A stretch of 22,659 bases of DNA from an uncultured archaeon. Its GTDB lineage: Archaea; Asgardarchaeota; Njordarchaeia; Njordarchaeales; Njordarchaeaceae. The DNA lies in the NCBI GenBank assembly GCA_965367995.1, contig CBDULE010000003.1, positions 1 through 22,659 on the forward strand. The letters are read 5' to 3'. Positions 14,249 to 14,409 of the stretch are shown here, one piece after another. Numbering within the stretch: the stretch's first letter is position 1; every line of letters starts with the position of its first letter. The position numbers were made by a program, and so were the translations under genes. The notes beneath the pieces were generated by a model, which was not told the origin of the DNA, searched no databases, and was given only the letters and a program-made list of their open reading frames with translations.

Positions 14249-14260
14249 CCGACCCCGTGG
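14249..14260. repeat. Trailer arm of the 12-bp inverted repeat bracketing the permuted 5S unit
   Basis: The plus strand reads ccgaccccgtgg. In the minus-sense RNA this is CCACGGGGUCGG. It pairs with the leader CCGGCCCCGUGG (14409-14398) as 11 Watson-Crick pairs plus one G-U. Confidence 0.8.
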
Positions 14261-14261
14261 T

Positions 14262-14391
14262 TTCCGTGTTCGGAATGGGAACGGGCGTTTCCCGCGCCCT
14301 ATGGCCGCCTCCCCCTTACGGGGGATGGCAGCAGAGGGCTTTCCCCGGGCCTCTCGGACCCGAGTACTCCCCCTCCGTGGCGCGGCTTAGC
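14262..14391 (-). rRNA. 5S rRNA gene, circularly permuted (3' domain, then GNRA hairpin linker, then 5' domain)
   Basis: The minus-strand RNA reads as follows. 14391-14327: GCUAAGCCGCGCCACGGAGGGGGAGUACUCGGGUCCGAGAGGCCCGGGGAAAGCCCUCUGCUGCC (helix II 3' strand, loop E AGUA/GAA, helices IV/V, helix I 3' strand). 14326-14310: A-UCCCCC-GUAA-GGGGGA. 14309-14262: GGCGGCCAUAGGGCGCGGGAAACGCCCGUUCCCAUUCCGAACACGGAA (helix I 5' strand, helix II, helix III, loop C CCGAAC). Joining the 3' end to the 5' end gives ...CCGAACACGGAA|GCUAAGCC..., which is the canonical 5S sequence at that position. Helix II (GGCGCGG/CCGCGCC) and helix I (GGCGGC/GCUGCC) pair across the two blocks. Confidence 0.85.
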
Positions 14392-14397
14392 TTCCGG

Positions 14398-14409
14398 CCA
14401 CGGGGCCGG
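14398..14409. repeat. Leader arm of the 12-bp inverted repeat bracketing the permuted 5S unit
   Basis: The plus strand reads ccacggggccgg. In the minus-sense RNA this is CCGGCCCCGUGG, immediately 5' of CCGGAA|GCUAAGCC. It is complementary to 14249-14260. Confidence 0.8.

Follow-up and report, generated by a model that had tools for sequence, protein, structure and literature searches.

Here we describe a 5S ribosomal RNA (rRNA) gene in a 22,659-nucleotide (nt) stretch of DNA, referred to below as the window, which comprises positions 1 to 22,659 of contig CBDULE010000003.1 from an uncultured Asgard archaeon of the order Njordarchaeales (assembly GCA_965367995.1). A complete 5S rRNA is readable on the minus strand at 14391..14262, with the 3' two-thirds of the molecule placed ahead of its 5' third. 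From searches with covariance models in both gene orders, we conclude that this locus is almost certainly a functional, circularly permuted 5S rRNA gene of this archaeon. Features of the 5S locus are given in minus-strand orientation, and loci on related contigs are identified by L numbers.

Covariance models recover a complete 5S rRNA only in permuted order

At the gathering threshold, Rfam gave no match in the window. The Rfam 5S model RF00001, which is in canonical 5'-to-3' order and has a gathering score of 38 bits, gave two matches when an E-value threshold was used instead. The first lies at 14312..14223 (–) with 28.1 bits, of which the true match is model positions 1 to ~52, and the second at 14435..14323 (–) with 23.7 bits, of which the true match is model positions ~48–120 at ~14395..14323. 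These two sub-threshold halves tile the whole model and their genomic order is reversed, which is the outcome that an earlier note on this DNA, made from the sequence alone, had predicted. In canonical order, RF00001 did not reach at least its gathering score in the window or at any of 13 related permuted loci, and control canonical 5S genes scored 65–80 bits with the same model.

We also built a covariance model, R1, from six canonical 5S genes of Thermofilaceae and Micrarchaeota (alignment A3, standard 5S pairs). These input sequences were cut in silico at CGGAA|GCUAAGC, their halves were swapped and helix I was closed by GAAA. This is an inverted rotation test in which the model is rotated instead of the window sequence. 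R1 had a single match in the window, at 14391..14262 (–), which covered model positions 1–119 of 119 with 81.2 bits and an E-value of 5.8e-17; the boundaries are exactly those that the earlier note had proposed for a rotated, full-length match. As a mirror control, R1 broke into two weak partial matches on its own canonical source loci. On the permuted relatives it matched at full length with 71–95 bits on every homologue. Thus, all structural elements of 5S rRNA (helices I–V and loops A–E) are present in the window and score as 5S once the order is restored.

Layout of the permuted gene

On the minus strand the order of elements is the leader CCGGCCCCGUGG, CCGG-AAG (14397..14391), the block GCUAAGCC...GAGUAC...GGGAAAGCCCUCUGCUGCC, a helix-I hairpin, the block GGCGGCCAUAGGGCGCGGGAAACGCCCGUUCCCAUUCCGAACACGGAA (14309..14262), AAA and the trailer CCACGGGGUCGG; the trailer AAA (14263..14261) overlaps the last two bases of GGCGGCCAUAGGGCGCGGGAAACGCCCGUUCCCAUUCCGAACACGGAA. 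The body between the two predicted cuts is 130 nt long (14262..14391). Its first part (14333..14391) is the normal 3' two-thirds and holds the loop B 3' strand GCUAAG, the helix II 3' strand, helix V, loop E (GAGUAC / GGGAAAG) and helix IV, which is capped by a GAGA loop. It is followed by the helix I hairpin (14304..14332), in which GCUGCC (14332..14327) and GGCGGC (14309..14304) are joined by the cap A-UCCCCC-GUAA-GGGGGA (14326..14310). The remainder of the normal 5' third (14262..14303) contains loop A (CAUAG), the helix II 5' strand, and helix III with loop C (CCCAUUCCGAAC), and ends in ...CACGGAA. The new ends therefore fall in the 3' strand of loop B, between helices III and II. The 5S signatures CCAUAG, CCCAUUCCGAAC, GAGUAC and GGGAAAG can be read directly in the window sequence.

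The body is bracketed by an outer helix between the leader strand (14398..14409) and the trailer strand (14249..14260), which has 12 bp including one G-U, and a CGGAA direct repeat marks both junctions (14396..14392 and 14266..14262). All sequence details listed in the earlier note, this helix and repeat included, were found at the minus-strand positions given there. The locus is also the sole GC-rich island of the window, as had been noticed before, with a GC content of 0.61 at 14201–14400 vs 0.27–0.46 in the other 200-nt bins. A single-sequence minimum free energy fold recovered the outer helix, the capped helix I and helices IV and V, and missed helices II and III; we did not use it as evidence for the 5S fold.

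The earlier note regarded the segment that closes helix I as a 17-nt insert. The closing hairpin A-UCCCCC-GUAA-GGGGGA is present; this segment is not wholly extra, because Rfam aligns GGA-GGCGGC to the 9-bp consensus helix I and helix I of relatives has 8–9 bp, so that part of the supposed insert is normal distal helix I. The cap varies in length and sequence among relatives and a stable hairpin is kept, with loops such as UUCG, GCAA, GUUA, UACG and CACG. At several loci, a helix I of 8–9 bp is closed directly by UUCG (L005/L013), UACG (L025, L044/L045) or CACG (L038). The common feature is a helix I of approximately normal length or somewhat longer that is sealed by a stable loop, and most of the loops are of the GNRA or UNCG type. 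Neither a second bulge-helix-bulge (BHB)-like motif nor a conserved sequence is present at the cap.

Other assignments of the locus were rejected. Weak Rfam matches to a CRISPR repeat, Pseudomonas P35 and other families (E 0.3–1.4) were taken as chance overlap with hairpins, and a tRNA-like element was excluded since ARAGORN found no tRNA or tmRNA in the window. A 62-amino acid (aa) open reading frame (ORF) with a GTG start at 14257–14445 (+) runs antisense across the entire 5S gene. It is rich in Pro, Gly and Arg, and we rejected it as a protein gene and regard it as an artefact of translating a GC-rich RNA gene. Automated gene calling might list it as a hypothetical protein, which would mask the 5S gene.

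The permuted gene occurs in two Asgard groups

The 201 nt around the locus are 100% identical in NCBI assembly GCA_964385815.1 and in ENA ERZ27227320, both reached via the flanking GTPase gene. Related contigs carry the same permuted arrangement with 72–79% identity in other gene neighbourhoods. In all, Njordarchaeales and Jordarchaeales/Freyarchaeota yielded 13 distinct full-length permuted sequences, plus one truncated at the edge of its contig. The earlier note's suggestion to look for the arrangement in related genomes was thus borne out in two Asgard groups.

Species-representative genomes were scanned with a pattern that fits either gene order (CGGAAGCUAAGC..AGUAC..GGGAAAG). This gave 12 matches: five permuted genes in Njordarchaeales, four canonical genes in Thermofilaceae, two canonical genes in Micrarchaeota and one chance match in a bacterium. 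All five Njordarchaeales species genomes were permuted (5/5), with one locus each. A pattern scan of metagenomes that was independent of the junction added further Njordarchaeales variants together with two divergent loci, L025 and L038. Proteins encoded next to these two match ones named Candidatus Freyarchaeota at 100% and 92% identity, and one named Jordarchaeales at 85%. From there, synteny pointed to two metagenome-assembled genomes (MAGs) of Jordarchaeales, on contigs of 543 kb and 272 kb, each with a permuted 5S gene at 81.3 bits with R1. The taxonomic distribution obtained in this way is a lower bound, as the scans depend on the patterns and the MAGs are incomplete.

Synteny gave no permuted copy next to TrpRS (L040–L043), at a distant Freyarchaeota POR locus (L046/L047) or at loci of GTPase paralogues (L008–L010). 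The lack of a copy within 4–10 kb at these places is uninformative because the 5S gene moves around the genome. For example, the gene lies between UPF0147 and a GTPase in the window (14249–14409), between an Asp/Asn-tRNA synthetase and PCNA in L004 (1471–1630), beside POR gamma in L005 (1202–1342) and beside a thiolase in L025 (6992–7205) and L044. The permuted 5S gene or its surroundings have been rearranged repeatedly. Pattern matches in GC-rich bacterial contigs (L020, L023, L024, L026, L028, L030, L031, L039) had no 5S features and were discarded as chance matches.

One contig in this set, L018 (CAZFGR010000001.1, 402,640 bp), is labelled 'uncultured Nitrososphaerota archaeon'. NCBI gives its GTPase the name Njordarchaeales, and the permuted 5S on this contig is near-identical to the L004 copy; the taxonomic label looks wrong.

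Covariation and transcription signals indicate a selected RNA gene

We aligned 12 distinct sequences (alignment A2) and imposed on them the canonical 5S helices plus the outer helix. In this alignment 95.3% of cells were paired, vs 75.5% in shuffles and 41–54% with slid partners. Compensatory changes occurred in 29 of 50 pairs, and none of 500 shuffles reached the observed value on any of five measures. Outside the 5S body, in the outer leader/trailer helix, 10 of 12 pairs had compensatory changes and 98.6% of cells were paired. Within the body, compensatory changes were seen in 6 of 8 pairs of helix IV and 5 of 6 pairs of helix V. Helix II, the strands of which lie on either side of the permutation break, also covaries across that break (4 of 8 pairs). 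Without a given structure, RNAalifold recovered the outer helix and helices I, II, IV and V.

A TATA-like box, TTTAAAAA, lies upstream at 14446..14453 (–) with the purine-rich caaaaga ahead of it, and is the putative archaeal promoter of an independent 5S unit. An octamer of this type (TTTAAAAA, TTTATAAA or TTTATATT) follows a purine-rich stretch 44–63 nt upstream of the central helix of the flanking motif in 12 of 12 aligned loci, and many loci have T-runs directly after the trailer. This cross-locus comparison replaced a bacterial promoter and terminator scan, which was dropped as irrelevant to archaea. The locus has the make-up of a single transcription unit: the 3' part is upstream of the 5' part, there is one TATA-like box and the natural termini are joined by the linker hairpin (14326..14310).

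Together, these data indicate that the locus is a selected RNA gene, probably transcribed from its own promoter, and neither a chimera nor a pseudogene. They also indicate that a processing signal is under selection, given the covariation of the outer helix, a bulge of constant length and a leader motif that is conserved and then discarded. These last two features belong to the motif at the junction.

The junction resembles a relaxed BHB motif

A BHB consists of two 3-nt bulges separated by a 4-bp helix (H) and flanked by helices h and h'; relaxed forms (hBH, HBh') do not have one of these elements (PMC3978253). The archaeal splicing endonuclease EndA cuts between bulge nucleotides 2 and 3 (PMC12397907, PMC4090602). 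In the structure of ARMAN-2 EndA with RNA, A13 is the first bulged nucleotide, an uncleavable dU14 the second and A15 the third, and the scissile phosphate is that of A15 (PMC12397907). In pre-tRNA, anticodon nucleotides 34–35 are in the central helix, so that the bulge is made of nucleotides 36, 37 and the first intron nucleotide (PMC4090602). On each strand, therefore, the central-helix strand comes first and the bulge follows in the 5'-to-3' direction.

The window has this topology, with h(12 bp)-CCGG-AA|G on the leader and ACGG-AA|A-h on the trailer. The central helix pairs CCGG (14394..14397), which is outside the mature 5S, with ACGG (14264..14267), which doubles as the base of helix III in the mature fold; it contains C-G, C-G, G-C and G.A, that is, three Watson–Crick pairs plus G.A. 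The outer helix, for which at least 2 bp are required, has 11–16 bp in relatives. On the trailer, every sequence has a bulge of exactly 3 nt, which reads AAA in the window (14261..14263), AAU in L017, where an extra A-U pair on h compensates, or GAU in a shifted register. On the leader the corresponding 3 nt, AAG (14391..14393) or AAA, are correctly placed and open into a junction loop instead of forming a closed bulge. Although it is outside the mature RNA, leader CCGG is kept in 8 of 9 Njordarchaeales sequences. The fourth pair of H is G.A in most sequences, G-U in L005/L013 (trailer UCGG) and A.A in L027.

By the published cut rule, the predicted cuts are at 14392/14391 (AA|G) and 14262/14261 (AA|A) and would release 14391..14262. 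Joining these ends in silico gives ...CACGGAA-GCUAAGCC..., the canonical loop-B strand. In a register search, the best-paired register led to the canonical junction CGGAA|G(C/U)(U/C)AAGC in 13 of 13 sequences, and a neighbouring register would add one A at the junction. In L025 and L044/L045, three Jordarchaeales/Freyarchaeota loci, the motif is shifted by 1 nt, with H formed by CGUG/CACG (four Watson–Crick pairs), bulges AA|A and GA|U, and h of 14–15 bp. The product of this shifted register, CACGGA+AGUCAAGC, is the same as that of the sister L038, which uses the common register. That two geometries converge on the same mature sequence under one cut rule is the strongest computational argument for selection on EndA-type cleavage.

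The genome of L005 offers an internal calibrator. Its tRNA-Ile intron has a BHB with CUGA/UCAG, then AA|A, then the anticodon stem, and the same H-AA|A-h arrangement at the 3' splice bulge supports the reading of the 5S trailer. In a nearest-neighbour model the BHB conformer of the window precursor lies only ~1 kcal/mol above the native fold (the two conformers are at –91.7 vs –90.4 kcal/mol at 37°C and at –31.7 vs –31.5 kcal/mol at 80°C). We class the motif of the window as a relaxed BHB (the hBH or BHB-like class of PMC3978253); the predicted motifs of L025 and L044/L045 are strict on three counts.

Several observations weigh against this reading of the junction. Formation of H requires that the base of helix III is opened. 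In the window and most Njordarchaeales H has three Watson–Crick pairs and a G.A, with G-U in 2 of 12 aligned sequences and A.A in L027, and RNAalifold prefers another pairing for leader CGG. H does not covary, because its trailer strand is fixed by helix III of the mature 5S. An inner helix h' cannot form between leader CUAAGCC and trailer CCGAAC; therefore the leader cut site is in a junction loop and not in a true bulge, and the motif falls in the relaxed class. In the common register, exact restoration is partly automatic because any in-register pair of cuts in the CGGAA repeat gives the same product; it is the shifted-register loci that make exact junction restoration diagnostic. To the same side belongs a survey published in 2026 in which the 16S and 23S rRNAs of archaea, in contrast to 5S, are excised and circularised (PMC12918454). 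On balance, the BHB reading offered by the earlier note is upheld in its geometry and in a cut rule that restores the canonical junction in 13 of 13 sequences, with the qualification that the motif of the window is only relaxed and has no h'.

Proposed maturation and the nature of the product

We propose the following pathway. Transcription from the gene's own TATA-box promoter would yield a short precursor, which would form the 12-bp leader/trailer helix, the AAA bulge, the four-position helix CCGG/ACGG and the three unpaired leader nucleotides AAG. EndA would cut at CCGGAA|G and CGGAA|A, on each side between the second and the third nucleotide. An RtcB-type ligase would then join the 2',3'-cyclic phosphate to the 5'-OH of the 130-nt piece. 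The result would be a closed 5S in which loop B has the canonical sequence ...CACGGAAGCUAAGCC... and a tetraloop-capped helix I takes the place of the natural termini. In the last and weakest step, the circle would stay closed and enter the 50S subunit. Ligation would create junction k-mers that the DNA does not contain, CCCATTCCGAACACGGAAGCTAAGCCGCGCC in the window type and CCGAACACGGAAGTCAAGCCCGC in the Jordarchaeales type, and exon ligation of the BHB type between leader and trailer would read ...GUGGCCGGAA|ACCAC.... We think that maturation by BHB cleavage and ligation to a circle is likely, by analogy with tRNA introns, with pre-16S and pre-23S rRNA and above all with the permuted signal recognition particle (SRP) RNA of Thermoproteus.

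The splicing machinery appears to be in use in genomes with a permuted 5S, as judged from their intron-containing tRNA genes. Such genes are found in L004 (5898–6044), L018 (2627–2773), L021 (7823–7961), L035 (11561–11699) and L005 (5766–5862). The tRNA introns of Njordarchaeales range from ~20 to ~70 nt (Rfam tRNA matches of 94–147 nt), and the long ones are missed entirely by ARAGORN. The bulge of the L004 intron is AC|A. At L046/L047 (6423–6851), a Freyarchaeota contig encodes Archease (PF01951), the cofactor of the RtcB ligase, which fits with active ligation by RtcB in this lineage.

A Clp1-family polynucleotide 5'-kinase gene (PF16575) is found in the window at 16518–17942 (–), beside a cluster of ribosomal-protein genes (L11/L7Ae/S28e/L24e) near the 5S gene. 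Genes of this family recur in Njordarchaeales and Freyarchaeota at L001 (1–498), L004 (6233–6639) and L046/L047 (16642–17928). Eukaryotic Clp1 is a cofactor of the tRNA splicing endonuclease. A role of the archaeal proteins in processing BHB-cut RNAs is conceivable; the linkage is weak, and in L004 the 5S gene is not adjacent.

The alternative that survives best is that the mature RNA is a linear permuted 5S. In this case EndA, or other nucleases that attack the leader/trailer helix, would cut the precursor, and its loop-B ends would stay unligated. Linear permuted 5S rRNAs are expressed in stramenopile mitochondria (PMC4267664), and with a nick in loop B no canonical nucleotide would be displaced. 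Such a product is just as compatible with the gene order, the covariation and the promoter, and the relaxed motif of the window might be a poor substrate for ligation or cleavage. However, the motif is built such that only ligation restores a continuous CGGAAGCUAAGC strand, and this restoration holds in two registers. We therefore regard a linear product as rather unlikely.

We consider it improbable that the circle is only an intermediate, with the helix-I cap removed after ligation to leave a linear 5S with conventional ends. Precedents for re-opening come from permuted tRNAs, where RNase P and tRNase Z remove the linker (PMC3978253), and from the 23S rRNA of P. furiosus, where helix 98 is reported to be excised after circularisation (PMC7758197, as cited in PMC12918454); the variable length of the cap between lineages also fits with this idea. 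By contrast, no conserved sequence or second BHB-like motif marks the cap as a processing site. Several caps consist of a bare tetraloop on a helix I of 8–9 bp and leave nothing to excise (L005/L013, L025, L044/L045, L038), and the loops are mostly very stable ones of the GNRA and UNCG types, as expected of a permanent structural element.

A further reading, in which a canonical 5S elsewhere in the genome does the work and the present locus is a chimera of assembly or a pseudogene produced by rearrangement, is close to refuted even though every genome used is an incomplete MAG. Independent assemblies carry an identical locus. The 13 distinct sequences, from two Asgard orders, show compensatory changes in each of the helices, the flanking one included, and the TATA-like box has been conserved. 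Each species genome has a single locus, which is always permuted, and Rfam found no canonical 5S in ~220 kb of related loci while it readily found the canonical genes of control taxa. The search for a canonical copy elsewhere that the earlier note had called for gave the same picture, in that the either-order pattern detected none in the five matched Njordarchaeales species genomes, each with its single permuted locus; a divergent canonical copy would have escaped this pattern-dependent scan, and this limit counts against our interpretation.

We come back to the closed 5S rRNA. Whether the circle is itself the mature form seems to us evenly balanced, and the stable tetraloop caps, which carry no processing signal, suggest permanence. 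Engineered circularly permuted 5S rRNA grafted into 23S rRNA supports growth of E. coli, which suggests that the ribosome tolerates closure of the native 5S ends. The broadest form of the idea, that the ribosomes of two thermophilic Asgard lineages contain a closed, end-less 5S made from a permuted gene by the tRNA-splicing machinery, we put forward tentatively and with slightly less than even confidence.

Other genes of the window

Homologues of the GTPase that flanks the 5S gene are named Candidatus Njordarchaeales or Njordarchaeia, which places the window in an Asgard archaeon. The gene content of the window fits such an origin, with an Arf/MglA-like GTPase, Yip1, a HEAT/adaptin-like protein and archaeal ribosomal proteins. 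The eukaryote-like signature genes encode a Yip1-domain protein with a zinc ribbon (550–1284 (+)), a HEAT/adaptin-like repeat protein (6696–7766 (–)) and the Arf/MglA-like small GTPase (13389–14015 (–)). An actin gene adjoins the paralogous GTPase in L008–L010 (L008 1698–2870).

The ORF for ribosomal protein S6e at 18883–19806 (+) has 307 aa, and the Pfam S6e domain covers residues 26–153 only. The excess may be a long charged C-terminal extension, or it may reflect a mis-called start or a fusion. There is a strong skew of A over T at 19200–20400, with an AT skew of up to 0.43. An ORF of 395 aa at 21294–22481 (–) has a weak match to a LAGLIDADG-like domain (E 6e-6) and may be related to homing endonucleases or derived from an intein.

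Implications

If our interpretation is correct, this would be the first natural circular 5S rRNA and the first permuted rRNA gene in a cellular, that is, non-organellar, genome. The 5S has been regarded as the sole archaeal rRNA that stays outside BHB cleavage and circularisation and as a gene that is trivially recognisable. Here it is scrambled in the DNA and would have to be repaired in the RNA. Should the product stay circular, ribosomes of hyperthermophiles would contain a natural 5S without ends, alongside the recently reported circular 23S. The two BHB registers also provide a natural experiment on the substrate rules of EndA.

There is a practical side to this as well. Annotation based on Rfam misses these genes, so the 5S looks absent from MAGs of Njordarchaeales and Jordarchaeales and calls of completeness and quality are affected. 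The 'high quality' category of the Minimum Information about a Metagenome-Assembled Genome (MIMAG) standard requires a 5S, and a dedicated covariance model fixes the missed annotation.

The permutation break is at the same phosphodiester in both lineages. Therefore, the permutation may have arisen once, as a rare genomic event that points to shared descent of the two groups or to lateral transfer between them. The shared break point is thus a candidate rare genomic change for the disputed placement of these Asgard archaea, which matters for models of the origin of eukaryotes.

Comparison with known systems

The closest parallel to the 5S locus is the permuted SRP RNA of Thermoproteus tenax (Plagens et al. 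2015, eLife; PMC4731332). This, too, is an essential, universally conserved and structured RNA whose halves are swapped and whose canonical gene was 'missing' from annotation. EndA cleaves the Thermoproteus RNA, and it is the ligated circle that functions (PMC4731332), as we propose for the 5S. It differs in that SRP RNA is not a ribosomal RNA and Thermoproteales are not Asgard archaea; moreover, circularity and cleavage by EndA were determined experimentally there, whereas for the 5S we infer them.

Permuted tRNA genes (Cyanidioschyzon merolae, Thermofilum pendens and others; PMC3978253) share with the 5S gene a 3' half that lies upstream, termini that are joined by an intervening sequence and a strict or relaxed BHB between leader and trailer. 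Those tRNAs are expressed through a circular RNA, and the 5S would be as well. By contrast, RNase P and tRNase Z open the tRNA circle again at the acceptor stem, whereas in the 5S locus a stable tetraloop hairpin without an evident processing site stands in for the natural termini.

Among ribosomal RNAs, permuted 5S rRNAs are known only from mitochondria of stramenopiles (PMC4267664). In a full-text literature search, 'permuted 5S' and related phrases returned only this organellar paper, and Njordarchaeales or Freyarchaeia combined with 5S rRNA returned nothing, in agreement with the earlier note, which was aware of no described archaeal permuted 5S gene. The stramenopile and brown-algal mitochondrial 5S (Valach et al. 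2014; PMC4267664; Rfam family mtPerm-5S) shares with our locus a hairpin-closed helix I and termini placed elsewhere in the molecule. It differs in being organellar, in having its ends at the junction of the alpha and gamma domains (loop A) and not in loop B, in having no flanking BHB helix and in giving a linear product. The mtPerm-5S family had no match in the window, where, among Rfam families, only the RF00001 fragments identified the locus as 5S.

In archaea, circular pre-rRNAs, a circular mature 23S and a permuted 23S of Pyrococcus are known (PMC12918454; PMC7758197). Circular forms of 5S from Halobacterium and Sulfolobus were heterogeneous and were interpreted as related to degradation (PMC12558985). 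The archaeal 16S and 23S rRNAs (PMC12918454; PMC7758197) resemble our case in that a BHB is present on the leader/trailer processing stem, and excision by EndA and ligation by RtcB circularise the rRNA. However, their genes are collinear with the canonical rRNA and it is the natural ends that are joined, whereas the 5S gene itself is permuted and ligation would rebuild an internal strand. These Asgard genes extend the set of permuted RNA genes with a putative BHB repair to a ribosomal RNA, and with it the strategy of combining a permuted gene with the splicing endonuclease would reach from tRNA and SRP RNA to the ribosome.

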